The notes beneath the pieces were generated by a model. It ran no database searches, had not been told where the DNA came from, and was given only the letters and a program-made list of their open reading frames with translations. Shown one piece after another: positions 49,689 to 64,000 of a stretch of DNA of 64,000 nucleotides. Every line of letters starts with the position of its first letter. Positions within the stretch are counted from its first letter, which is position 1. The stretch is from a virus (Duplodnaviria; Caudoviricetes): the IMG/VR virus record IMGVR_UViG_3300029286_000011; one strand, given 5' to 3'. A program made the position numbers and the translations under genes.

Positions 49689-50630
49689 TCAGATGAACTC
49701 GGCTCGGGCCACGGCGTTGGTATTGCCGATGGTGCAGCCGTTCTCTTCGTACGCAAAGAACTCAATCATGAAGGCTTTGCGCTCGATGAACATCGTGACC
49801 GGTTCCAACTCAAAATGCTTGCCAAGGAACTTCGGGTCGGCAAACAGGTAGATGTTGTTCGTCTCGACGATGTCCTTCTTGATCGTGACGATCCAGTCGA
49901 TGCCCATGAAACGCTGCAGCGACCAACCATCACGCATCACATCCATCGACAAGTCGCCGCCCATTTCGTCTCGGCGGAACTTACCAACTTCCTTGATGGT
50001 CAGCATATTGCAGACCGCCAACTTGGTCTCAAGGCAGCTGGGCGTCGAAGGCAGAATCTTCAGCATGTCCCAGAGGCTGTCGCGGTTGATCCCGCCGCCG
50101 ATCTGTTCGTACTGAGCCACACCGGACGTGGGCAAAATGACACCAGGGCCAACAATAGCGTTGTTGACGGCCCGGAACCATTTGGCGTCCTCTTCCGCCA
50201 ACATGTCCTTGATAGCATTATCAGAGAACACCTGGCGAATATCCATGACCCAAGTACGCAACTCGGACACGTCCTTGGTGAAGCGGGTCGTCATGATCCG
50301 CTCGAAACCAACGGGGTAGCGAGGTCCCTTGATGTACATGTTGCTGGGCAACATGGCGAAAGGAACGCTGACAGCCGCCGGAGAATCCGGTTCCTTGTCG
50401 ATGATCTTGATCGGCTTGTCGTCTTCGATCATGCGGTCAAGGTCGTCGGTGATAGTCACCGGCGGGAGAATCTTTCGGAGGACGCCATCTTCACGCATCT
50501 TGTAACGCGTGTAGTCGTTGGCGGCATCCACAGCTTCTTTGCGCTGTTGCCAATCGGTAGAACCGAGCTTTTCGCAAAGCACCCGGTTGACCACCTTCGG
50601 GTCCAGGCCTTCTTCCAAAAGGGCGCTCAT
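49689..50630 (-). CDS. Major capsid protein (HK97-fold inferred)
   Basis: 313 aa from ATG 50630 with CACGGAGG RBS. Strongly biased codons. Order is protease-scaffold-decoration-MCP. 'DMLAEEDAKWFRAVN', 'FLGKHFELEPVTMFIERKAFMIEFFAYEE'. Confidence 0.8.
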   Translation of the reverse strand: MSALLEEGLDPKVVNRVLCEKLGSTDWQQRKEAVDAANDYTRYKMREDGVLRKILPPVTITDDLDRMIEDDKPIKIIDKEPDSPAAVSVPFAMLPSNMYIKGPRYPVGFERIMTTRFTKDVSELRTWVMDIRQVFSDNAIKDMLAEEDAKWFRAVNNAIVGPGVILPTSGVAQYEQIGGGINRDSLWDMLKILPSTPSCLETKLAVCNMLTIKEVGKFRRDEMGGDLSMDVMRDGWSLQRFMGIDWIVTIKKDIVETNNIYLFADPKFLGKHFELEPVTMFIERKAFMIEFFAYEENGCTIGNTNAVARAEFI

Positions 50631-50675
50631 ATGCACCTCCGTGTTAGCTAAGTTTCAGTGGTGTCCGTACCAATA

Positions 50676-51779: not shown

Positions 51780-53027
51780 TTACTTACCGCACAGGTCAGT
51801 AATAGACTTGAGAATGGCCTGAAACTGTTGAGCCTGTGCCGCATTCTTCGGTTGCCACTTGGGCTTAGCCGAAGCCTGCTTGTTGGCCATTTGAACGAGT
51901 TTGGCAGCTGCCTTGGCCTGAACCGCAGCAGGATCAACGTTGGCCTGCGACAAGGCTTCCTGCAGCATTGCAAGCAGATCGGCTTGCTGACCTTCACCGC
52001 CGGCCATGCCGGCAAGAGCAGCGTCGCCACCTACGTCGCCCATCGGGGGCATTCCCTCAGGGCCTGCGCCCATCGGAGGCTCTCCCATCGGAGGAGCGCC
52101 ACCACCGCCGGCCCCGCCAGCGCCCTGCAGAAGCTGCAGCAGGAGCTCAGGAGGGATCTCGTCGCCGCCACCGGCCATTCCCGCAGGAGCAGCGCCTGGC
52201 ATGTCGCCCATCGGGGCTTCCGCCGCAGGATCTTCCGTCATCGAAGGCTCAGACGACTCGGTCTCTTCCTTCGGAGGCTTCGGATCCTCTTCTTCGGAGT
52301 CTTCACACTCCTCGGCCTGCTTCTGCGCTTGTGCGAAAAAAGCATCGTAGTAGTCTGCCAGCTTGGTAGCAGCTTCGTCGGCTATCAAGATGGTGTCGCG
52401 CAGAGACGTGACAACACCAGCCACTTCGGCTTGCTTGTCATTGGCCGCAGCACCAACAACGGCTTGAGCCAAGGCGGCACCGGCCTGAGAAGCAGCCTTG
52501 GAAGGCTGAGCCGGCTTCTGAGCTTCCTTGTTCGAGGAGTCAAACGCCACAGCCAGCTTCGCAAGGATGCTTGTCCCCTGCGCATTGGCCTGATTGATAA
52601 GCGTTCGAAGCTCAGCAAACTTCTTCCCGTCTAACGAACTGTTGTCGGTACGGGCGGGGTGGCTGGATCCGGGATCGTCCTTCTCGGATTTGGCCGAGGA
52701 GGTTTCGTTGCTCGGATCTTCGCCAGTGGCCGCAACGGTAGCTCCGATATTCATCTGGAACTGATCCTGCGTACCAGGCGTGTTTTCCTTGGCGTTGTTG
52801 ACGCCAATGGGTTGATCATCCTTGTTGTCCTTTTCGTTCTCCGAAGAACGAGCACCTTCTTGCGCAGGTGCAGTTCCATCATCGACGTTCTTGGACGGAT
52901 GGGTCGTAGCGCCGCCAATGTTAGCGGGCTCACTGTTTGCCGAAGCCGACTTCTCCGGATTAACTTGCTGCAGCAAAGCAGCAATGCTGTTCCGAAGACT
53001 GGCTTGCTTATTGAACAAAGTAGTCAT
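51780..53027 (-). CDS. Putative scaffolding/inner-body protein
   Basis: 415 aa. Acidic and Gly/Pro/Met low-complexity blocks, at least eight K-x-A motifs, between protease and capsid genes. Confidence 0.6.
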   Translation of the reverse strand: MTTLFNKQASLRNSIAALLQQVNPEKSASANSEPANIGGATTHPSKNVDDGTAPAQEGARSSENEKDNKDDQPIGVNNAKENTPGTQDQFQMNIGATVAATGEDPSNETSSAKSEKDDPGSSHPARTDNSSLDGKKFAELRTLINQANAQGTSILAKLAVAFDSSNKEAQKPAQPSKAASQAGAALAQAVVGAAANDKQAEVAGVVTSLRDTILIADEAATKLADYYDAFFAQAQKQAEECEDSEEEDPKPPKEETESSEPSMTEDPAAEAPMGDMPGAAPAGMAGGGDEIPPELLLQLLQGAGGAGGGGAPPMGEPPMGAGPEGMPPMGDVGGDAALAGMAGGEGQQADLLAMLQEALSQANVDPAAVQAKAAAKLVQMANKQASAKPKWQPKNAAQAQQFQAILKSITDLCGK

Positions 53028-53072: not shown

Positions 53073-54596
53073 TTACGCGACAACCTTATTTTGCAGGACT
53101 ACACATTCAAGTGTCAACGGTAATAGTTCTTCGGGCGTAGCCATACTGGCCAGGGCAGACAACTGATACAGGGCATACTGCTCTGCAATCTTCTGCGCCA
53201 ACTCTCCACATGCCCCTGATTTGATCAACGTACTTTTGGAGCGCAAACGTGTTTCTGCGTCCTTATACAAGGCAGCTCGTTGCGCACGATCTACGATTGA
53301 AGACAGCTCAAGCGAATGATCTCGGGTGAACTTATCAGCCCAGCTGCGCCGTTGTGCTGAGACCGGACCAACAGTAACGGCAAACGCACTTGAGGCAATC
53401 TTCGTGTAAACCACTGGATCCGAAGCCAGTCGGCCAAAAACACCAGGCAGTTCGTCTTCCGACAGCGATAAAAGCTGTGCTGTCTTTTCACGGTTATCTC
53501 CGGTTAACAACCGGACAAAATCGCGGAACGGCAAAAGTACTCTCCGGCTAGCCATGGCTGCTAGCTTCAAGTTTACCTCACCGGTATCCAGCGGTCCCAA
53601 TTCTCGAATCTCTATCGGGCGCTGCTTACTCTCAGCTAGACCCAGGGCAAGAGCCTTGTGTCGTTCCGTCGTGTTTCCTTCCATAGCCGTCTCAAGCTGC
53701 GCCAGTTTGTGCAGCAAGACAGCCTGCTTCTGCGATGCCTTCTGATCGTTAAGGCGCAGTATTGTTCCGTAGCCGTTCTGATTGGCGTATATCTCGGCCA
53801 GTTCGGCACCACCGATAACATGACCAGCGCTGGCTGCCTTTGTCATGTAGTCGGCTTTAGCACCCCAGGCACTAGGATCGGCAGGACGCCCGACCTTGGA
53901 TATATCGAACCATCCGGGATTGGGATTGTCCACAAATTGCTGCAGACCGTCCCATGCCAATTTGGTGAGTCCGTCACGGCAGCCAAACATACGTCGGCCA
54001 GTTTCCGGACTGATGCACGTATCTTCAGTGCAGTACTCACTTCGATTGGCTGCCTTGTTATGGCAGTTTTGGCAGACATCGTAGTCGATTGTAGTGGCCA
54101 TGCTCCACGGCAGGGCGTCACCACGGTTCAAGGCATGCAGGTCGTCGTCAGGCATCACAAGACCGCCGTTACGTTCGGCAGCTTCCTTGGTGCCATTGCC
54201 GACAACTAGCAGCTCAATCCTGCGCATTGGCTCGTTGTATGCGGATGCAGCAACCTTGCCATAGCTCTTGTCAGGATCTTTGTTTTTGTGATTTCGGTAG
54301 TAACGGGCCTTAGTAACAAAGCGACCATGATGCTCACGGCAATCAGCTTCCTTGAAGCCATCGCCATTGCGATTAGATCCAAAGCCCTCGGTGGCACAGA
54401 CAGCGATCAAATGTATAGGAATGTCGCCACGGGCAATCTTGACGTTCTCAAGTGCCTTCGTCAGGGCATGATCAGCGCGCTTTAAGAATACGGCGCGGTC
54501 ATGATTGGCAAGGCCACCGCTGGCCATCTTTACCAGTTGAGCGGGTTCTTCCGTCAACCTATCCCATGAGCCTACGCCTACAATTTTGTGCATCAT
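53073..54596 (-). CDS. Prohead maturation protease
   Basis: GSNRNGDGF, RNHKNKD (putative His), IELLV, WSM (putative Ser), DVCQNC...YC Zn-like insert. This is the pattern of large-phage prohead proteases; a C-terminal extension follows. Confidence 0.75.
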   Translation of the reverse strand: MMHKIVGVGSWDRLTEEPAQLVKMASGGLANHDRAVFLKRADHALTKALENVKIARGDIPIHLIAVCATEGFGSNRNGDGFKEADCREHHGRFVTKARYYRNHKNKDPDKSYGKVAASAYNEPMRRIELLVVGNGTKEAAERNGGLVMPDDDLHALNRGDALPWSMATTIDYDVCQNCHNKAANRSEYCTEDTCISPETGRRMFGCRDGLTKLAWDGLQQFVDNPNPGWFDISKVGRPADPSAWGAKADYMTKAASAGHVIGGAELAEIYANQNGYGTILRLNDQKASQKQAVLLHKLAQLETAMEGNTTERHKALALGLAESKQRPIEIRELGPLDTGEVNLKLAAMASRRVLLPFRDFVRLLTGDNREKTAQLLSLSEDELPGVFGRLASDPVVYTKIASSAFAVTVGPVSAQRRSWADKFTRDHSLELSSIVDRAQRAALYKDAETRLRSKSTLIKSGACGELAQKIAEQYALYQLSALASMATPEELLPLTLECVVLQNKVVA

Positions 54597-55828
54597 TTCG
54601 GTTGTACCTTATCCTTAAATCGCTGCGCAAAATTAGACGAACCGCCCCATATCGCCGGCAAAACGAGACCAAGCAAGCTGGGCAATTTCTTTACCATGCC
54701 GGCACGCCCGACCCTAGACAGGCCACGTACCTGGGAATTCGAAAGGGTCGGCATATATTTGTTGGGCAGTGAGGGATCGTGCTGATCGGCCACGGCAGAC
54801 AGCTGCGCCCTTAGTCGCGTAAACCACGAGGCATTCGTTAGTTCTTGCTTGAGCAATGCCTGAGCTTCGGTTGCCAGTCGTTGTTCTTCTACTAGCGACT
54901 TGATCCTATCATTAACGTGCTTCACGTTATCAGAGACAGTCTTACCCATACTGTGATAATCTGCCAAGATCTTAGGATCATTCACTTTGGCATCTTGCAG
55001 CTTCTTTATCAGGCCGTTGGTGTCCTTGTGCAGGGTCGAAAAAAGGCCTTCGTTTGTACTTGCTGCCGCTAGATCACTGGCAATTTCGGCAGACGACCGC
55101 AGGGGTATGCCTTCTGTAGGGTTAAACACGTCGAAACGATGTGTAGGCTGTGTTAACCAAGACTTGCCAAATTCAAAAGGCTTTTCGGCAGTACCTGTTA
55201 TAACATTTGAAATATTACTTGGGTTGAATCTGCGAATCATCTCGGCCAAACCAAACAAGCCTGCACCGATTGGCATTTTTCTAGCCACATCGCCCACCAA
55301 CGTAGGCTGTGCTTGTGCTGCCTCCTGGCTACGTCTAGTCAGCTCGTCAACCGCTGGATTGCCTGTGGTGGCATTTGGAGCCGCAGCAGGTGCAGCCGGT
55401 GTTACAGGTGCTGCTGGAGCTGCCGGGCCGCTAGAGGCAGCAGGAGCCGATGCTGACTCCTCAAGCTTCCTCTTGATAACCTCGTTCCAGTCCTTGCCTG
55501 TAGGCGTGCCAGGAAGCCCTTGGTAGGCCTTATACGCCAAACCAGCGCCACCACCAAGCAATCCACCGGACAGCGCCCCAGTCAGCATGGACTTGGGCAT
55601 ATTACGTTCTTCCTCGTCGCCCGCCAGGCCGGTGAGTCCACCAAGCAACGCCCCGCCACCAGCGCCCAGCAAAGCGCCGGCAATAGGCGTATGGTTTGTG
55701 GCAAACTCTTTGAGCTGTTCTATAGCATCAGCCTGCTTCTCTGCCCGTAAGGCTTGGGCCGTAGATGCAATAGCCGCCAACTTGCGTGCCGCGTCTTGAA
55801 CGCTGCCTTCAAACAAAGATTGAATCAT
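54593..55828 (-). CDS. Putative internal/ejected virion protein with glycine-zipper segment
   Basis: Likely start ATG 55828. GALLGAGGGALLGGLTG and GALSGGLLGGGAG glycine zippers after EKQA; Pro/Ala linker. Confidence 0.6.
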   Translation of the reverse strand: MIQSLFEGSVQDAARKLAAIASTAQALRAEKQADAIEQLKEFATNHTPIAGALLGAGGGALLGGLTGLAGDEEERNMPKSMLTGALSGGLLGGGAGLAYKAYQGLPGTPTGKDWNEVIKRKLEESASAPAASSGPAAPAAPVTPAAPAAAPNATTGNPAVDELTRRSQEAAQAQPTLVGDVARKMPIGAGLFGLAEMIRRFNPSNISNVITGTAEKPFEFGKSWLTQPTHRFDVFNPTEGIPLRSSAEIASDLAAASTNEGLFSTLHKDTNGLIKKLQDAKVNDPKILADYHSMGKTVSDNVKHVNDRIKSLVEEQRLATEAQALLKQELTNASWFTRLRAQLSAVADQHDPSLPNKYMPTLSNSQVRGLSRVGRAGMVKKLPSLLGLVLPAIWGGSSNFAQRFKDKVQPK

Positions 55829-57173
55829 CGTGCAGTACCTCGGCACCCTTGGTTCTATCTAGCCCGATGGCTTCCGTCTGCCGCATCGTTTTCTCGATGT
55901 TGGCAATCTGCTCAGCCTCAAACGGCGCGACAGCGCCTTGTGTCAGCCGCTGACGTAACAAAGGTCGCATAATAGCTGGCTGGCTCGATACGTGCTGGCC
56001 CAGCTGAGCGATCTCGTTGTAGGCCGACAACACTTCATCAGGCTCGTGGCTGCTGATAACTTCATCGTTGTCCAGAAAGTCCTGCAACATGGCTCGCGCA
56101 TAGATCTGGCGTATCTCATTCTGATCGCCAGGAGTCGCAAGCTCGTCTGCAATAGACGAAGACATTTCACCAGGAGTCTTATCAGCGCCAGTCTGTCGGC
56201 CCCAGTTAGCTACGCCCGCCGTCATACCGCCCATCAGAGCCGGAAAAAAGTTCGCTTCTTTCATCGTCGAAGAGTCCTGAAAGACAGACGAGCATATCTC
56301 GGCGTGTGATGGGCTCAACACAAAAGGGCGCAATTCGTCCTCCGCTACGTTGAACATAGCCATCTTGCAGTGTCGCTTTTCGGCTTCGGCCTTGTTGACG
56401 GCCTGGGCGCACTTGATCACATTGTGAATCAAGTTGTACGGCTCTTGTGTTTCAGCCACAGCAGTCAGCCTTGGCTTGAATGCAGCCTTACGCAACTCAA
56501 GATATTCGTTGCTCGCGTAGGCAATATCCATAGCTAGCTTGGCTGGAGGGCCAAACAACTGACAGGCATAGTATTCAACTTCCGGTGTCTGAAGCCGGGC
56601 TATAGACGACTTTCGGAAGTAGTCATTCATCTCTTTTACCGACTCTCGGAAGTTATCGGTAAACCTGGCGGCAACAGAGCTCGCGTATTCGTAAGCCTGC
56701 TTGGCCTTCGTAATGGCCTTCATCGGCTGCTTCTTTGCCGCCGGCTTCTTATTGGCGCAGGCTGCTTCCTTCTCAGTAAGCAACGACGGCAGCTTGGTTG
56801 ACCATACGCCTGTTGAAGACTCAGGCCACGGATCAGGCGGTCGATCATACTCATCGGACACAGACAGAGCCGGCTCAGCTGAGGCGATCTTTTCCGGGTA
56901 CAGTCTGGCCATGATGTTCTCGATACGAGCAATCGGGAACTCGGCCAATTTCTCAAGAACACCGGTGTTCTGTTCACGCTGATACGCAGACCGGCCGACG
57001 TTGAAGGATCGAACAAGCAGTGGAATGTACGTGGAAGGTAGCCTGTGATCGGTGGCCACCTTAACAATGGCGTCATCAGGCGACACACCGTCGTCTGTGA
57101 TAGACGCCATGCATTCTCGCACAGCTCCAACTAGCCGATCTTCAGCGGCCTTATCAAAGGGGGCAACCGCCAT
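55809..57173 (-). CDS. Putative internal head protein (K-x-A motifs)
   Basis: ATG 57173 with AAGGAG RBS; DKAA, EKIA, EKEA, MKEA. Confidence 0.6.
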   Translation of the reverse strand: MAVAPFDKAAEDRLVGAVRECMASITDDGVSPDDAIVKVATDHRLPSTYIPLLVRSFNVGRSAYQREQNTGVLEKLAEFPIARIENIMARLYPEKIASAEPALSVSDEYDRPPDPWPESSTGVWSTKLPSLLTEKEAACANKKPAAKKQPMKAITKAKQAYEYASSVAARFTDNFRESVKEMNDYFRKSSIARLQTPEVEYYACQLFGPPAKLAMDIAYASNEYLELRKAAFKPRLTAVAETQEPYNLIHNVIKCAQAVNKAEAEKRHCKMAMFNVAEDELRPFVLSPSHAEICSSVFQDSSTMKEANFFPALMGGMTAGVANWGRQTGADKTPGEMSSSIADELATPGDQNEIRQIYARAMLQDFLDNDEVISSHEPDEVLSAYNEIAQLGQHVSSQPAIMRPLLRQRLTQGAVAPFEAEQIANIEKTMRQTEAIGLDRTKGAEVLHDDSIFV

Positions 57174-58592: not shown

Positions 58593-61088
58593 CTATATCG
58601 AAGCAACGTCTTCAAGACTGGGTGCGGTCATCGAGCTGCCTAGCAGCGGCGATGCGTCCTTCTCTTGCAGATAAAGCGTGGTATCGCCAAGCGATTCGAA
58701 CGAGTTGCGCAAGGTATCTTCCAGCTCAGGCAGGTCTGCCTTGCCGTACTGATCCATGAACTCTTCGTTGTGCCAGTAGAACATGAAAAGGATACGGCCA
58801 AGCCTGTCCAACGCCTTGAGCAAGTCAGGGATGAACTTTTTGACCAACGAATCCTTATGCACAGCCTTTACAAGGCCGGAGATCATGGACGTATCCATAA
58901 CCTCTTTCTGGCCGGTCTGCGCTGCCTGCATAGCAGACTGCATAGCATACGGATCAGGTAGAGCTTCGGGGCTCTGGTCGTATACCGACGGATCTGTATT
59001 TCCGGCTGAGAAGGCATCTACCGGCAGCAATTCCTGCTGTGGCATGATCGACGGCGCATAGTTGCTGGCCTGACTTACGTCGTACACCGGCGCAGGAAAG
59101 GACGGGGCAACCATGCCAGGGTCTTGGGCGTACTTGATGAAGACCGTTGCAGACAGGCCATGAATGGCGGCCTTTTCTGCCTTGGCCATCAGCGCCCGTG
59201 CAGCCTTCTCACGCAAGCCGTGACGCCAGATCAGGTCAAACAACGTGGCTTTCTTCGTCTTGCGCACGCTGTCGTTAATGACGGCCTCAGAGCCCAGAAC
59301 GCTTACCCTGAGCATCGGGAAAAGAGACTTGGCAGCATCTTTGATAAGTGTGCTGCTTCCAAGCTCAAATCCAGATTTGTACTGCAGCTTCAGTTCAATG
59401 TCGGGCAAACCAGACAAGATGAACGGCGCATTCTTACTCTCCCACGAGCTGCCGTATGGACCTGACATCGAAGTGCCCGGTTCATGGTCTGCGCCAGACT
59501 TGGAGATGCGCAGAACCTTGGAGTCCTCTGGGACATACAACGTGTCTCCTAGAACCCTGAAGGACGACCCGCGATGCTCGTTGAATATAACGTGCTTACG
59601 GCCATAGGAGCATTCACCCACCGGGTAAGAACTGTCCATGGATTTGGGCGTCCATGACGGTTGAGGCTCGCCATAGTCCTGCCAATCAACAACGCATGTA
59701 TTGCCGTTCGGCTTGTCGTCGATACGGAACGGACAAGTAGCGTCACCATTCTTGGTTACGACTATATATCTGTGGTCGTAGCCTGCCGTGAGCTCGGCAG
59801 ACGACAGACCTTCGTACCATTTGCCAAAGTCCTTGTCGTCGTCCTTGGCAGCTTCTCCGGTGCGCACGAAAATGTTGTTACGGTGCGTGTTCTTCCAATC
59901 GCGTGGATCCAGCTGGACAACAACAGACAAAGGCTTGTGTCCGCCGGCAGCCATTGGCTGGGAGGCAACAAAGCAGCGCTTGAAGACGCCAGGCTGCATC
60001 AACACGTCGTACAATCCGGTCTTATCCGGGTTTGTAAGCTGTATCGGACTGGTGGTTTCGTAGGCGGTGGAAACTTCGTCAGCCGCACGCTTGTCCTGAA
60101 CGATATAGCCGTTGCGTACGATACGCTCACGGTCTGCATCGTTCAACCATTGCGGGCAGTAGTCTAGCGTTGACGAATCGTACGTCAGAATGCGCAGCTT
60201 AGTCTCGGCACTCTTCTGTCCGAAAATGCCTTCCAGCTCGTCGCTGTCAGGCAGATCGCCAAATACGCTATCATCGGCGGCAGACTTGTTATCGACGGCG
60301 TTAAGCAGCGTCTCCAGCGCTGTTTTAATGAGGTCAGGGCCGTAATGCGTGTCAAGCATATGCTTGACAGCTGGGTACTTTTTGTAGGCCGCATATGCCA
60401 GCTTGCAGAACTCAATGTCCTGAGCCAACACACACGGCAACGACAGCCGGTCATCCAAACCGGCATACTTAGCAAGTTTCCACGGGTCATCGACGGTCAG
60501 GCTGCCGTACACAGGCAGGAAGTCCAAAGACCAATCGCGGAAATGCTTCGGAAGTTCTTCTGAGAACTTACCAAACGGCGGCGTCGAAAGACGAGTGAGG
60601 TCCGGTTGGCGAACGCCAAGCTGCTGCGCAGACCTTGAATCGCCTTCACCAAGAATGTGCGGACGCTGCGCCAGAATGTAATTGATCCAGTTTTCCTTCA
60701 GCGGCACGAACTGGTCTTTGCCCTTGAGATACAACAGCTCGTGGCCCTTCATGTCGCCATTCATGAACATGACAGGCGCATAGGCCCACTGCTCACCGAT
60801 CTTGAATCCGAAGATACCAACAGCCTTGGTGGAATCTTCGTTACGATCAACAAGCTGGAAGCCTATAAGGAAGTCAAGCAGACGAGGGGCCTTATCACGA
60901 ATGTGCGTATAGGCCAGGCTTGCAAAGGCCTGCTCGAATGACTGTTCCTGATCTCCACCAAGCGATGCCGCCTTGGCCAGACCTGCGGCCACTGCGACTA
61001 ATGTCTCACGTTGACGCTTAGCTTCCGCAGCGAGCTTCACGTTACGAAAACGATAAGATAGCTGTCGGTTGAAAGCAGGGGCAACCAT
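58593..61088 (-). CDS. Large putative internal head protein (K-x-A motifs)
   Basis: About 831 aa from ATG 61088. KLAA, KAAS, KSAA, KSAE, KYAQ; globular N-terminal block; Pro/Gln-rich linker before a helical C-terminus. Confidence 0.6.
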   Translation of the reverse strand: MVAPAFNRQLSYRFRNVKLAAEAKRQRETLVAVAAGLAKAASLGGDQEQSFEQAFASLAYTHIRDKAPRLLDFLIGFQLVDRNEDSTKAVGIFGFKIGEQWAYAPVMFMNGDMKGHELLYLKGKDQFVPLKENWINYILAQRPHILGEGDSRSAQQLGVRQPDLTRLSTPPFGKFSEELPKHFRDWSLDFLPVYGSLTVDDPWKLAKYAGLDDRLSLPCVLAQDIEFCKLAYAAYKKYPAVKHMLDTHYGPDLIKTALETLLNAVDNKSAADDSVFGDLPDSDELEGIFGQKSAETKLRILTYDSSTLDYCPQWLNDADRERIVRNGYIVQDKRAADEVSTAYETTSPIQLTNPDKTGLYDVLMQPGVFKRCFVASQPMAAGGHKPLSVVVQLDPRDWKNTHRNNIFVRTGEAAKDDDKDFGKWYEGLSSAELTAGYDHRYIVVTKNGDATCPFRIDDKPNGNTCVVDWQDYGEPQPSWTPKSMDSSYPVGECSYGRKHVIFNEHRGSSFRVLGDTLYVPEDSKVLRISKSGADHEPGTSMSGPYGSSWESKNAPFILSGLPDIELKLQYKSGFELGSSTLIKDAAKSLFPMLRVSVLGSEAVINDSVRKTKKATLFDLIWRHGLREKAARALMAKAEKAAIHGLSATVFIKYAQDPGMVAPSFPAPVYDVSQASNYAPSIMPQQELLPVDAFSAGNTDPSVYDQSPEALPDPYAMQSAMQAAQTGQKEVMDTSMISGLVKAVHKDSLVKKFIPDLLKALDRLGRILFMFYWHNEEFMDQYGKADLPELEDTLRNSFESLGDTTLYLQEKDASPLLGSSMTAPSLEDVASI

Positions 61089-61236
61089 GGCGTCGTCCGT
61101 GAACAAAGGTGATGAAACGTCCGTGCTGTATTGCGCAGTGTACAGTTTACGGCTTCAGTTGTTCTGCAAGTGCTGTCCCGATCATGACTACGGAACAGCC
61201 CCTTACTAAAATTCTATTCGCTTTTCGACGAAGCTG

Positions 61237-63999
61237 CTACCCAATTCGGCCGATGGGCTTCGGCGCCTCGGGCAACTTTGGCTTAGCAGCAACCTGTGTA
61301 GCAGGCGCCGTAGTAGGTGCAGACATAGGCTTCGGTGCAGCAGGAGCCACCCAACCTTGTGGGGCTGTCTGGGCAAATCTGGCCTGAAAATCTGTATCCG
61401 GATTGGCCTTCAGAAACTCCTGCGTAGGCATATGTTGCTGCAACTTGTTGTCGTAATACCAGCTATCGTCTGGAGCTGTGTTGTAGAAACCTTGCAGCGC
61501 TTCTCGTGAATATGGTGTTCCACGCTGCTGTTGCACATGCTGTAACTGTGCTTGCCCTTGCTGCACGCCCCTAGCTGCCCCAACGGCATTTCCAACCTCT
61601 TTGCTAGCTGCGTACGCCTCTCCAGGCAAATTGATCAAGGAGCGTATGGGCTTCATATTGGCGTTTATCGCTGCGCCTGCGTAGCTGAGCAAACCATTAG
61701 TTGGATCCTTGAAACCTAGAATAGTATTGTCTGGTGTCACATCATTCATAAACTTCTTGTGATCGCTCCAGCCAAATCCTGTTTCTCTCTTGCCGCCGAG
61801 CATCTCCGGTAACAAACCAACACCGTCGACAAGTTCCAACGCACCATTTATAGGCGTAGCCCATAAACTAGCCGTGCCACCAATTCTTTTAGCAGCGGCT
61901 TGTCCAAGTAAGCCCATGCCAGTTGAGGCTGCCGCCGATGGAGCAACAGCCGCAGTCACAGGCAGAATGTAATCAGTGAAGCCCGGCTTAGGCGGTGGCA
62001 CAGTAGGAGGCGGCACAGGAGCAACGGATTGCTCAGCTGGCGACTGTGGTGCATCGGACTGCTCGTTTATAGGTTGCCTTGGTTGCACAGGTTGTGGCTG
62101 CGCAGGTGCGGGCTGAGGCTGTACGGGGGCTGGCTGTGCCACTGGCTGAGCAGCAGGTTGTGCGGGTGCCGGCGGCTGTACAGGTGCTGCAGGTTGCGTA
62201 GTGTCAGGTGTTAACGGCTCTGTCGGCGTAGCCGGATTACCGCTAAACAGCATATCTTGAGCTGCAGACGGGTTCATCATGGCCATGAATAGCATCTGGC
62301 CTAGTGGTCCCATCTTCTCTAGCAAAGGCAACAGCATCGGCATAATGCCGGCCATTGAGAAGCCCTGGCCGTCATTTTGTTCCGGCATCAACTCTGCAGC
62401 AGTCTTTGGTGCAGCCAGTTCCGCAGGTGTGTAATCTCTTGGCGTTCGTACCTTGCCCTTGCCGATTTGACCTGTGGCCAGCGCAGGTACAAAGCTAGTG
62501 CCCATAGGATCGCTGATAGCACCTCGTTGCGCACCCTCAAGTACGCTGCCCTTCAGACCGCTGCCAAACATGCGTGTAAGCCAGTCTGGATCATGCTGCA
62601 AATTAGCCATGCCGCGAATCATCTCTGGTTCAAACGGCGGCGGATCGGCATGAACGTCGATGTTCTCCACGCCAAACTTCTTCAGCTGTTTGACAACACT
62701 TGGTCGTATCTTGGTGCCAATCGAATAATGCAGATATGGGCGTTCTAGATACTTACCAACTGCTCGTGCGGTTGGCAAACTATCGTAGCCATCTCGTGGC
62801 CGATACTTCTTCTCAACAACGTCATAAGGCACAACGTCATCAGGAGCCAAGTCGTCGAGTTCGTCAGTCAGTCTGACGTGATTTATGAGACCCTTGGCCA
62901 ACAGCTCTATGTTTCGACGATGCCCGCCGATACGGGCATTGGCATAGGCCTTCCTGAAGGCATCAAGAAAGTAACGTCTGCCTTCACCAACACCTTTATG
63001 CTCTGTAATGACAGCTGGGTTGGGCTCACCCTCGCTAAGCATGTCACCGGCTTCTATGTTATCGCCAGGCTTAACGACAGGTTCGAAGCCTTCGCCTACA
63101 TAGTGCTTGGTGCCATCGACGGATATGTACTTACCACCGGCTGGTGCAGGGTCGATGGACTCAACATGACCATCAACAGTGGCATGTACAGCGCCGCCTT
63201 TGAAGGTCTTAGGAACCTGCACAAGCTGATTGATCCAATCAAAACCGGAGATAGCTGCAGAGCCACCAGCACCAGCTACACCGCCCGTATGCTTGCTCGA
63301 ATTAGACACAATCAGACCATTGGCAAGTACGAAAAGGTGATCTTCGTGTGCCACTTCTAGGTCATGTGTATACTGATGACCGATAGCAATCTGCTCTTTC
63401 CTGTACAGTCTGTTACGCGACGCAGTAGGTCTAGGTCTCCATGTGGCCAAACAAGCTACCAGCGTGTGTCTCTTAACACCGTACAACGGGATATTAGCGG
63501 CAAACTTTAGCAGGCTGTCACGAAATGTGATTACGAAGCTGTAAAGAACGTGCTTTCGCTTATCCGCCCCGCTAGGTTTTGGTATAGAGGCATATATGCC
63601 AAAACGCCATTCCAGCAGCTCTTTGACCTGCTCTACAAGTCTTAGTGATGTTGATCCGAATGAGATATGTACGGCCCCTCCTTTTGCTTTATTTTGCTCG
63701 GATACGTACACAGACCCATCTGTCACCATCAGTCCGGCTATCAGCTCTGCCACAGACGCATTGTTCCAGCTGTAAGCCTCGTGAGGTATGATCTTTTCGT
63801 AGGCATATTTACCTGCCATTCCGTACCGCACCAGCATTTGCATTGCTGGATTTCTATACGATCCGTTAAATCGACCAGTTGTGGCATCCTGAGCTGTACG
63901 TGCTTGGTCAATCTGACTTACTCGATAATAGCCTCGCTGACCGGCCAATAGGGTAGTCTTCAAGTTCAGCGCGGATAGGCGTGGCGCTATATCGGTAAT
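61237..63999 (-). CDS. rpoC: DNA-directed RNA polymerase beta-prime subunit, C-terminal part, intein-containing, with about 390-aa low-complexity extension (5'-truncated)
   Basis: Frame is open to the window edge. After the intein: SKHTGGV (trigger-loop His region), VKPGDNIEAGDMLSEGEPNP..ITEHKG, RRNIELLAKGL and DWLTRMFGSGLKGSVLEGAQRG. These align by eye with bacterial beta-prime regions G and H. Confidence 0.85.
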   Translation of the reverse strand: MTDIAPRLSALNLKTTLLAGQRGYYRVSQIDQARTAQDATTGRFNGSYRNPAMQMLVRYGMAGKYAYEKIIPHEAYSWNNASVAELIAGLMVTDGSVYVSEQNKAKGGAVHISFGSTSLRLVEQVKELLEWRFGIYASIPKPSGADKRKHVLYSFVITFRDSLLKFAANIPLYGVKRHTLVACLATWRPRPTASRNRLYRKEQIAIGHQYTHDLEVAHEDHLFVLANGLIVSNSSKHTGGVAGAGGSAAISGFDWINQLVQVPKTFKGGAVHATVDGHVESIDPAPAGGKYISVDGTKHYVGEGFEPVVKPGDNIEAGDMLSEGEPNPAVITEHKGVGEGRRYFLDAFRKAYANARIGGHRRNIELLAKGLINHVRLTDELDDLAPDDVVPYDVVEKKYRPRDGYDSLPTARAVGKYLERPYLHYSIGTKIRPSVVKQLKKFGVENIDVHADPPPFEPEMIRGMANLQHDPDWLTRMFGSGLKGSVLEGAQRGAISDPMGTSFVPALATGQIGKGKVRTPRDYTPAELAAPKTAAELMPEQNDGQGFSMAGIMPMLLPLLEKMGPLGQMLFMAMMNPSAAQDMLFSGNPATPTEPLTPDTTQPAAPVQPPAPAQPAAQPVAQPAPVQPQPAPAQPQPVQPRQPINEQSDAPQSPAEQSVAPVPPPTVPPPKPGFTDYILPVTAAVAPSAAASTGMGLLGQAAAKRIGGTASLWATPINGALELVDGVGLLPEMLGGKRETGFGWSDHKKFMNDVTPDNTILGFKDPTNGLLSYAGAAINANMKPIRSLINLPGEAYAASKEVGNAVGAARGVQQGQAQLQHVQQQRGTPYSREALQGFYNTAPDDSWYYDNKLQQHMPTQEFLKANPDTDFQARFAQTAPQGWVAPAAPKPMSAPTTAPATQVAAKPKLPEAPKPIGRIG

Positions 64000-64000
64000 T
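63301..64000 (-). mobile_element. Intein with LAGLIDADG homing endonuclease (C-terminal part)
   Basis: ELIAGLMVTDGSV (LAGLIDADG), QVKELLEWRFGI, block F/G THDLEVAHEDHLFVLANGLIVSN, followed by extein Ser at 63298-63300. Confidence 0.9.

Follow-up and report, generated by a model that had tools for sequence, protein, structure and literature searches.

Why does a subunit of a phage-encoded, bacterial-type RNA polymerase (RNAP) continue for 409 residues beyond its last conserved beta' block, and what might those residues do? The question is posed by a minus-strand gene in IMG/VR record IMGVR_UViG_3300029286_000011 (Duplodnaviria; Caudoviricetes), a 185-kb phage record of which we analyzed bases 70258-134257, a stretch of 64,000 nucleotides hereafter called the window. 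The gene, here named beta'C, encodes the C-terminal part of a beta' subunit with two LAGLIDADG inteins. Its frame is open on the minus strand from window position 63999 down to the stop codon at 61237-61239 and leaves the window at the other end, the whole gene specifying 1804 amino acids in the phage record (L002:495-5909). A first-pass annotation of this DNA had read the extension as a packaging or ejection module that is cut off during head maturation. We find that the extension, to judge from its boundaries and homologues, is a distinct, self-contained non-polymerase module, which we call X. The explanation that we favor, to which we would give somewhat less than an even chance, is that X is packaged together with beta'C as a head or ejection module, that a prohead protease named g507 cuts the chain at a K-x-A motif, and that the polymerase is a virion enzyme.

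A non-polymerase module at the end of beta'C

By homology, beta'C is the C-terminal half of a bacterial-type RNAP beta' subunit through the trigger loop and later conserved regions. Its last extein (residues 1118-1395; 62467-63300, minus strand) runs from the trigger-loop motif SKHTGG through ..GTSFVPALATGQ, where the polymerase core ends. A search with this extein gave 95 relatives, 52-67% identical to it: 15 on viral contigs, and the 80 best of 412 metagenome loci. A profile of residues 1116-1400 matches the solved beta' chains of Thermus (residues 1242-1386, E 8e-15) and E. coli (residues 1189-1287), and solved bacterial chains match the profile of this last piece only across its first 162 positions. 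The first-pass annotation had placed the end of beta' similarity near FVPALATGQ (residues 1387-1395; 62467-62493): this final beta' block is kept up to ATGQ in all relatives, and those without a tail end 13-55 amino acids beyond it. The protein studied here does not end soon after the block; 409 more residues follow ..GTSFVPALATGQ (residue 1395) before the stop codon, including 61 alanines, 60 prolines, 35 glutamines and 34 glycines.

The tail can be divided into segments, all on the minus strand. A linker, IGKGKVRTPRDYTPAELAAP (residues 1396-1415; 62407-62466), has an end, ..YTPAELAAPKTAAEL, like the N-termini of the separate X proteins P0017, P0026 and P0032 that are described below. At the boundary between polymerase and X stands K1416-T-A1418 (62398-62406), the sole K-x-A in the 409-residue tail and a candidate prohead-protease site, at which cleavage would occur in the explanation we favor. 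As had been stated from the first reading, the frame stays open through PKTAAELM, which begins at residue 1415, and the codon of K1416 lies at 62404-62406. A Met-rich segment, GFSMAGIMPMLLPLLEKMGPLGQMLFMAMMNPSAAQDMLFSG (residues 1430-1470; 62242-62364; nine Met in 45 residues), and a Pro/Gln/Ala-rich low-complexity spacer recognized by composition (residues 1471-1557; 61981-62241) precede the X core (residues 1558-1675; 61627-61980), which comprises a Gly/Ala-rich stretch and a conserved domain, ..LWATPINGALELVDGVGLLPEMLGG..FGWSDHKKF..AINANMKPIRS. The C-terminal part of X (residues 1676-1763; 61363-61626) consists of a Gln-rich helix and a ..DDSWYYDNKLQQHMPTQEF.. motif, and is followed by a Pro/Ala/Lys-rich C-terminal end (residues 1764-1804; 61237-61362 with the stop codon). 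Met/Gly/Leu/Pro-rich segments like GFSMAGIMPMLLPLLEKMGPLGQMLFMAMMNPSAAQDMLFSG also occur in other types of fused tail and in separate X proteins, as low-complexity sequence whose likeness may not reflect homology, and the spacer differs freely in length and sequence between relatives. The C-terminal part aligns with the separate proteins P0017, P0023 and P0026 (..FYHDTQLGHMMPTAAFF..), and in an AlphaFold2 (AF2) model it forms helices and a small sheet at a predicted local distance difference test (pLDDT) score of 70-83.

The Met-rich, Pro/Gln/Ala-rich and Gly/Ala-rich composition described at first reading holds. The Pro/Gln/Ala spacer is not a tandem repeat of the DNA, where only one 15-bp unit in 2 copies was found. 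The Gly/Ala stretch, after which come about 200 residues of ordinary, globular sequence, is only mildly hydrophobic; hydropathy does not support a membrane helix there, the maximum 19-residue Kyte-Doolittle mean of 1.2 being under the classical membrane-helix level. An internal start for X at Met1422 is likewise unsupported, with no strong ribosome-binding site ahead of it.

Sequence and profile searches returned no Pfam, PHROGs or PDB match for the tail or its stand-alone homologues. Queried by itself, the tail drew a blank in a word-indexed protein search, and scored as part of the full-length protein it retrieved that protein only. A scan of viral contigs for the tail's last 245 residues gave no match, and protein-atlas look-ups yielded no usable lead for the tail or for the adjacent head-region protein g837. 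Neither catalogued polyvalent-protein domains nor the MPTase peptidase were found in this phage's own tail, and no nucleic-acid-binding or sigma-like domain was found in X.

Fused, separate and absent forms of module X

The fusion is observed repeatedly. An identical 1804-amino-acid protein is encoded on 9 contigs, including a 209-kb ENA assembly and Logan contigs, and three lake-water runs, each assembled separately, yielded contigs that cover 61000-63000 with zero differences at word depths of 14-24; these are contigs, not raw reads, and the runs may include the source sample. The frame is continuous in all three assemblies. No RNA datasets were listed among the public runs. Taken with the fused relatives described next, the assemblies make an artefact very unlikely, and the fusion is natural and recurrent.

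Among the 81 relatives with a complete 3' end, 43 have a fused tail of 163-822 amino acids and 38 end 13-55 amino acids after the core. The distribution is bimodal, no relative falling between the short (<=60 amino acids) and long (>=163 amino acids) classes. The relatives' tails are low-complexity, modular and very divergent in sequence. Three arrangements occur: a fused tail; a short beta'C with a separate gene; and a short beta'C followed directly by the gene for g837 (13 loci). A separate X-like gene stands right after beta'C in at least 15 relatives, often with overlapping stop and start codons, so that what is a tail here is a gene of its own in many relatives. Ten such tail-like genes, within a few bases of the beta'C stop codon (L064, L075, L097, L083, L071, L094, L099, L020, L031 and L066), share NIMP/Met-rich motifs, or the core domain, or a coiled-coil part (..DETADW..GGHKFRDA..). 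An exhaustive profile search with the X core found three further loci (L101/P0017, L108/P0035 and L110/P0021) in which beta'C is followed by an X gene overlapping it by 1 or 4 bases and then by a g837 homologue, as well as L102/P0023, which starts 3 bases past the upstream open reading frame (ORF) on a 1.9-kb contig that stops short of g837. Residues 163-368 of the tail studied here match the separate 370-amino-acid protein P0017 at 30% identity over 219 amino acids (E 1e-16).

A maximum-likelihood tree built from the beta'C core requires 10 or more transitions between the fused, separate and absent states, and well-supported branches force no fewer than 3 of these. In one clade no member out of 12 has X (10 scored as X-less and 2 unscored), and the sequence studied here belongs to a group in which fused and separate forms alternate. 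From the separate X genes, the match to P0017 and the changes on the tree, it follows that X is, by these comparisons, an independent, gene-sized module that has been repeatedly joined to and split from beta'C. The alternative named at first reading, a lost stop codon that fused two genes, therefore stands as evolutionary history, given the separate genes of relatives, and falls as an error, given the identical assemblies and the 43 fused relatives.

The slot between beta'C and g837 also receives other genes. At L004:6943-10538, L012:6888-9092 and L096:2651-5013 it holds unrelated small genes in place of an X-like one, for example for a P-loop kinase-like protein and for Cys-rich proteins, and on comparative grounds it is a general insertion hotspot. 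Some fused tails of relatives include enzyme domains: that of P0030 has a polyvalent-protein-type inorganic pyrophosphatase (InPase, PF18823, E 5e-56), and that at L090:3601-5889 has an acylphosphatase, a P-loop AAA_18/33 kinase-like domain and DUF5661. Such domains are typical of injected phage proteins and offer a hint that the slot may hold injected proteins.

The core domain of module X

The X core is a domain of about 100 amino acids (..TPINxAxExxDxxGLLPxWxGG.G...GW...F......N...P[LI][RK]S; alignment A4), with near-invariant Asp, Gly, Pro, Gly-Gly, Gly, Gly-Trp and later Pro residues. Its profile has 34 matches at E<=0.001 among 1.84 billion representative proteins (E 1e-10 to 1e-33), found in other beta'C tails, separate X proteins, one unrelated phage and proteins of Oligoflexales. 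No Pfam, PHROG, PDB or BFVD counterpart was found, a Foldseek search of BFVD giving nothing under E 0.2. By its pattern of conservation, the X core constitutes a conserved but undescribed domain family.

The closest X core, 51% identical, is in P0018, a stand-alone protein of 336 amino acids. Its gene lies at L104:8001-9011 (contig of JGI 3300052879; also L105 and L106) within a block of structural genes in a phage that is not otherwise related, with a 946-amino-acid portal-like protein encoded upstream and proteins of 878, 475 and 996 amino acids downstream; no polymerase gene neighbors it there. The domain also occupies the extreme C-terminus of proteins with signal-peptide-like N-termini; P0012, the one of them that was traced to a genome, comes from Oligoflexales and has an X core of 41% identity. 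The P0012 gene (L103:8001-9218) lies on contig CAZLMG010000048.1 (L103/L111) of an uncultured Oligoflexales metagenome-assembled genome (MAG). Four more genes of similar size, encoding 376-441 amino acids and without Pfam matches, follow it, and of this row only the first gene matches the domain profile. A genome-contig scan with P0012 found only its own Oligoflexales MAG.

A K-x-A motif at the boundary and a predicted prohead protease downstream

A K-x-A motif lies within 80 amino acids past the end of the beta' core in 32 of 41 non-redundant fused tails, compared with 15-18 in shuffled tails (maximum 27 in 2000 trials), and within the first 30 amino acids of 15 of 27 separate X-like proteins, compared with 4 in shuffles (maximum 10). 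Separate X proteins begin, for example, with MDKQA.., MYKQA.., ..ELGVKLAA.. or ..ELGIKTAA.., which the junction studied here, ..YTPAELAAPKTAAEL.., resembles. The nine fused tails that lack K-x-A have K-x-Ser or K-x-Gly at the corresponding place. The evidence from fused and separate relatives supports the view that the K-x-A at our junction is not an isolated coincidence.

A protease that might act on this motif is encoded four genes downstream of beta'C. Protein g507 (53073-54596, minus strand; 507 amino acids, more than 400 homologues) is predicted to be a prohead maturation protease with the fold of T4 gp21 and herpesvirus assemblin and a helical C-terminal domain (AF2 model, pLDDT 82.7). 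Its residues 17-238 match T4 gp21 (5jbl) with Z 9.4 and a root-mean-square deviation of 3.1 A over 140 of 164 residues, and the next structural matches are about 25 herpesvirus proteases (Z 4.7-7.3). Residues H62, H103 and S165 are invariant in the family. A disordered interdomain linker, ahead of the helical domain, contains a conserved K253-A-A-S that recalls the C-terminal self-cleavage of related proteases (PMC10052503). Five g507 homologues (P0092, P0095, P0117, P0129 and P0156) reach about 870-885 amino acids and include LAGLIDADG/Hint intein domains, for which this protease is an uncommon host.

The first reading had noted that the junction fits a K-x-A motif abundant in the adjacent head proteins, and counts in the genome agree. 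K-x-A is 3- to 5-fold over-represented relative to shuffles in g507 (16 observed, 3.7 expected), g415 (13 and 5), g465 (13 and 3.7), g837 (16 and 5) and g159 (6 and 1.3), and genome-wide the excess is limited to these five and to three ORFs beyond the window. Every homologue that we examined, 30 of g507 and 10 of g837, shows the excess as well. The pattern is like that of protease motifs in T4-like and phiKZ-like phages, and we take K-x-A to be the probable cleavage motif of g507. Herpesvirus assemblins cut at Ala|Ser sites, which the small P1 residue of K-x-A recalls.

Of the enriched proteins, g837 (58593-61106, minus strand) is a conserved head-region protein of 837 amino acids that comes after beta'C or X and is syntenic in nearly all relatives at 30-42% identity. 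Its homologues have an invariant K45 and a nearly invariant A47 in K-x-A-S-L-G-G, as might be expected if an N-terminal propeptide of some 47 residues were removed. Between the genes for g507 and g315 lies that for g415 (51780-53027, minus strand), which its sequence marks as an acidic, low-complexity, scaffold-like protein; g315 (49689-50636) has a weak major-head-protein match (phrog_2522, E 0.001). Unlike its neighbors, g417 (54593-55846, minus strand) shows no K-x-A excess; it has a weak match to Gly-zipper PF13441 (E 2.7e-4, below the cut-off). The three ORFs outside the window, which may encode further protease substrates, lie at G000:C1:59662-60861 (plus strand; 18 K-x-A against 3.5 expected), 148028-149164 (minus strand; 7 against 1.7) and 162946-163557 (minus strand; 3 against 0.6), the first being opposite in strand to nearly all other genes.

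The polymerase genes occupy window positions 63301-64000 together with L002:495-13900 (G000:C1:131494-144899). The gene upstream of beta'C encodes a protein of 2197 amino acids with two further inteins (beta-beta'N), in which beta is fused to the N-terminal part of beta', through and past the catalytic motif NADFDGD; Pfam Rpb1_5 gives a weak match to the middle extein of beta'C. There are four LAGLIDADG/Hint inteins in total, two in each protein, and three small genes (260, 86 and 96 amino acids) lie between the two. No sigma-like or alpha gene was seen adjoining the polymerase genes.

Comparison with known systems

The locus may be compared first with the multi-subunit-RNAP-encoding Caudovirales (mReC; Weinheimer and Aylward 2020, PMC7481178), with which it shares large uncultured tailed-phage contigs, an origin in aquatic metagenomes and bacterial-like beta and beta' subunits with intact catalytic motifs including NADFDGD. 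It differs in two respects. A term search of PMC7481178 found no mention of a C-terminal extension of beta'C, of inteins or of virion packaging, and no T4-type capsid, portal or protease family (PF07068, PF07230, PF03420) was detected by Pfam in the genome studied here; the T4-like capsid protein PF07068 is itself reported in only 8 of 97 mReC contigs (PMC7481178).

In phiKZ-like phages a multi-subunit polymerase is packaged in the head and ejected, its genes lie among the head genes, and a gp21-like prohead protease, which also trims itself C-terminally, processes many head proteins at a motif of three residues (PMC5694885, PMC10052503). The first-pass annotation had assumed that phiKZ-like virion polymerase subunits are both packaged and cleaved. 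Packaging is borne out, whereas cleavage is reported only for the beta subunit of 201phi2-1, which loses a long propeptide, and no polymerase cleavage is reported for SPN3US; moreover the phiKZ-like motif, S/A/G-x-E, ends in Glu and not in Ala as K-x-A does (PMC5694885). In those phages the processed part is N-terminal, whereas the extra module here is C-terminal and its packaging is what we propose. Their enzymes are highly diverged, in five subunits, with a second, non-virion set of genes; here we found one bacterial-like set, beta-beta'N plus beta'C, in a record that is 89% complete, and not the two sets of small diverged subunits.

Polyvalent proteins, in which an early-acting enzyme is joined to further modules, are carried in the virion and enter the cell with the DNA, and some are processed; the N4 virion RNA polymerase is listed among them (Iyer et al. 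2017, PMC5512222). The beta'C-X chain is like them in being a long polypeptide that joins an enzyme with other modules. It differs in that its own tail carries neither MPTase nor the two or more catalogued effector domains that typify the class, although the relatives P0030 and L090 carry such domains, and in that the polymerase is multi-subunit, not single-subunit as in N4.

The fold of g507 is the same as that of T4 gp21. In T4 capsid targeting, a short N-terminal leader ends in a three-residue protease motif that is also abundant in the scaffold and core proteins (summarized in PMC10052503). The cut there is after Glu in L/I-x-E, and here it would be at K-x-A. The leaders of separate X proteins are as short as 5 residues, and in the fused form the 'leader' would be the whole 1415-residue polymerase subunit, unlike T4. 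Three features that mark prohead-protease substrates are present here: a gp21/assemblin-fold protease in the module, a motif over-represented in the scaffold, protease and core proteins, and the same motif at the boundary in relatives.

A proposed role in the virion and its alternatives

In the explanation that we favor, X would be an internal head or ejection-type ('polyvalent-protein-like') component, built from a short leader ending in K-x-A, a Met-rich segment, a low-complexity spacer, the core domain and a helical C-terminal part. It would occupy a hypervariable slot between beta'C and the head-morphogenesis genes, and would here be translated in frame with beta'C. The gp21/assemblin-fold prohead protease would recognize K-x-A and cut the fusion at K1416-T-A1418. 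Because the two are translated as one chain and would be cut at this site, polymerase and X would enter the prohead together and be released there, and the polymerase would be a virion enzyme that is delivered with the DNA. That K-x-A is cut, that virions contain beta'C and X, and that X has any role at the host envelope are inferences. The placement of an X core in the structural module of the unrelated phage L104, downstream of a portal gene, supports this explanation. The packaging or ejection module of the first-pass annotation is partly supported: it gains from the distinctness of X, the recurrent boundary K-x-A, the prohead protease four genes downstream and the K-x-A excess in that protease and a few head-region proteins, and loses from the polymerase subunit as a whole, which is not enriched in the motif.

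Several observations weigh against a packaged and processed polymerase. K-x-A is not enriched in beta'C overall (5 against 8.9 expected) and is neither enriched nor depleted in beta-beta'N (13 against 12 expected); the polymerase subunits, tested for avoidance of K-x-A, showed none, so that nothing points to the enzyme having been selected to gain or to lose the motif. By composition, a lone K-x-A in a 30-amino-acid linker has a chance of about 0.2, and four of the closest fused relatives by path length (L027, L040, L072 and L079) lack an exact K-x-A. The shuffle tests ignore kinship among tails, and relatedness inflates their counts; when every spaced residue pair was counted as a control, K.A came 8th, behind pairs from the alignable block just after the core. 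In separate proteins, lysine at codons 2-3 (MDKQA, MKKMA) might also stem from a bias at translation starts. AF2 models the X core poorly (overall pLDDT 64.5, falling under 50 across its most conserved motif), and nothing marks g837 as a portal or other known head protein, searches having given no Pfam, PHROG or PDB match and hhalign no similarity to the 878-amino-acid L104 protein. Finally, 13 relatives are scored as X-less at the locus, of which 4 were searched as whole records (each 93-100% complete) and showed no X-core domain at any position; with profiles A2 and A4 of the X core, five tail-less relatives gave no copy, a weak absence since the same profiles also miss the divergent tails L006 and L007. 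Relatives that lack X and have the same polymerase imply that X is not essential for the polymerase or for its packaging, and that X is accessory.

Of the alternatives, the one that survives best, though we regard it as unlikely, is that mere adjacency produced the fusion: X would be the first gene of the head module, merged with beta'C through loss of a stop/start overlap, and the polymerase would act only in the cytoplasm, its appendage tolerated on an exposed beta' C-terminus or clipped without any packaging role. The overlapping stop and start codons of the separate forms are such that one small change would fuse the genes, and the alternation of fused and split states on the tree, the X-less relatives, the X core of L104 with no polymerase gene beside it and the chance level of K-x-A in the polymerase subunits are all in keeping with this account. 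It sits less easily with the majority of fused forms (43 of 81), in many sublineages, and with the constancy with which X or X-like genes keep their place beside beta'C. Prohead proteases are, besides, normally active only inside proheads, and a fusion whose X part enters the prohead would bring beta'C along.

Slightly less probable still, in our view, is that X is an accessory subunit of the polymerase in the infected cell, with a K-x-A unrelated to proteolysis. X could then serve in promoter or template choice, tether the enzyme to a membrane or replication compartment, or form a partner-recruiting tail loosely like the C-terminal domain of Pol II. A gene that stands constantly beside beta'C and is often fused to it commonly signals physical interaction, the polymerase genes have no sigma-like or alpha gene beside them, and long disordered Pro/Gln/Ala-rich and Met-rich segments would suit multivalent binding. 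Against an accessory subunit stand the X cores found among the structural genes of an unrelated phage and at the C-terminal end of Oligoflexales signal-peptide proteins, the conservation of K-x-A at the boundary, and relatives' tails with InPase and kinase-like domains typical of injected proteins. It also fits poorly with the lack of X in complete relatives that have the same polymerase and with our finding no nucleic-acid-binding or sigma-like domain.

Scarcely credible, finally, is an assembly or sequencing artefact in which a missed stop codon or frameshift joined two really separate genes, which the GC-rich low-complexity sequence nearby and the separate arrangements in relatives might suggest, but which the identical contigs from three separately assembled runs over 61000-63000, the identical 1804-amino-acid protein of the ENA 209-kb assembly and Logan contigs, and the in-frame fused tails of 43 relatives from unrelated samples contradict.

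Implications

Bacterial-like beta and beta' subunits have been described in phages before (PMC7481178), as have virion polymerases and head proteins processed by proteases. The C-terminal module of beta'C, its repeated fusion and fission, the core domain, and the boundary K-x-A motif with its matching enrichment in head proteins are not described in the literature that we compared. Whatever the mechanism, the slot between polymerase and head genes has modules that repeatedly become part of beta'C and separate from it, the X core makes up a conserved domain family not yet described, and K-x-A is a directly testable candidate protease motif; related loci in metagenomes number at least 412.

A broader proposal, which we put forward as doubtful, is that widespread large aquatic phages load a two-gene bacterial-type RNAP by means of a chain of beta'C and a head or ejection protein, released at K-x-A by a gp21-like protease, along a route independent of those of N4, phiKZ and crAss-like phages, and that the X core, shared with secreted Oligoflexales proteins, is an envelope-acting entry module. 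If the polymerase is indeed packaged by way of the fused module, a large enzyme would be loaded into a capsid in a manner not described in the compared literature, and these phages would bring their own bacterial-like transcription enzyme into the cell and could be independent of the host polymerase from the first minute of infection.

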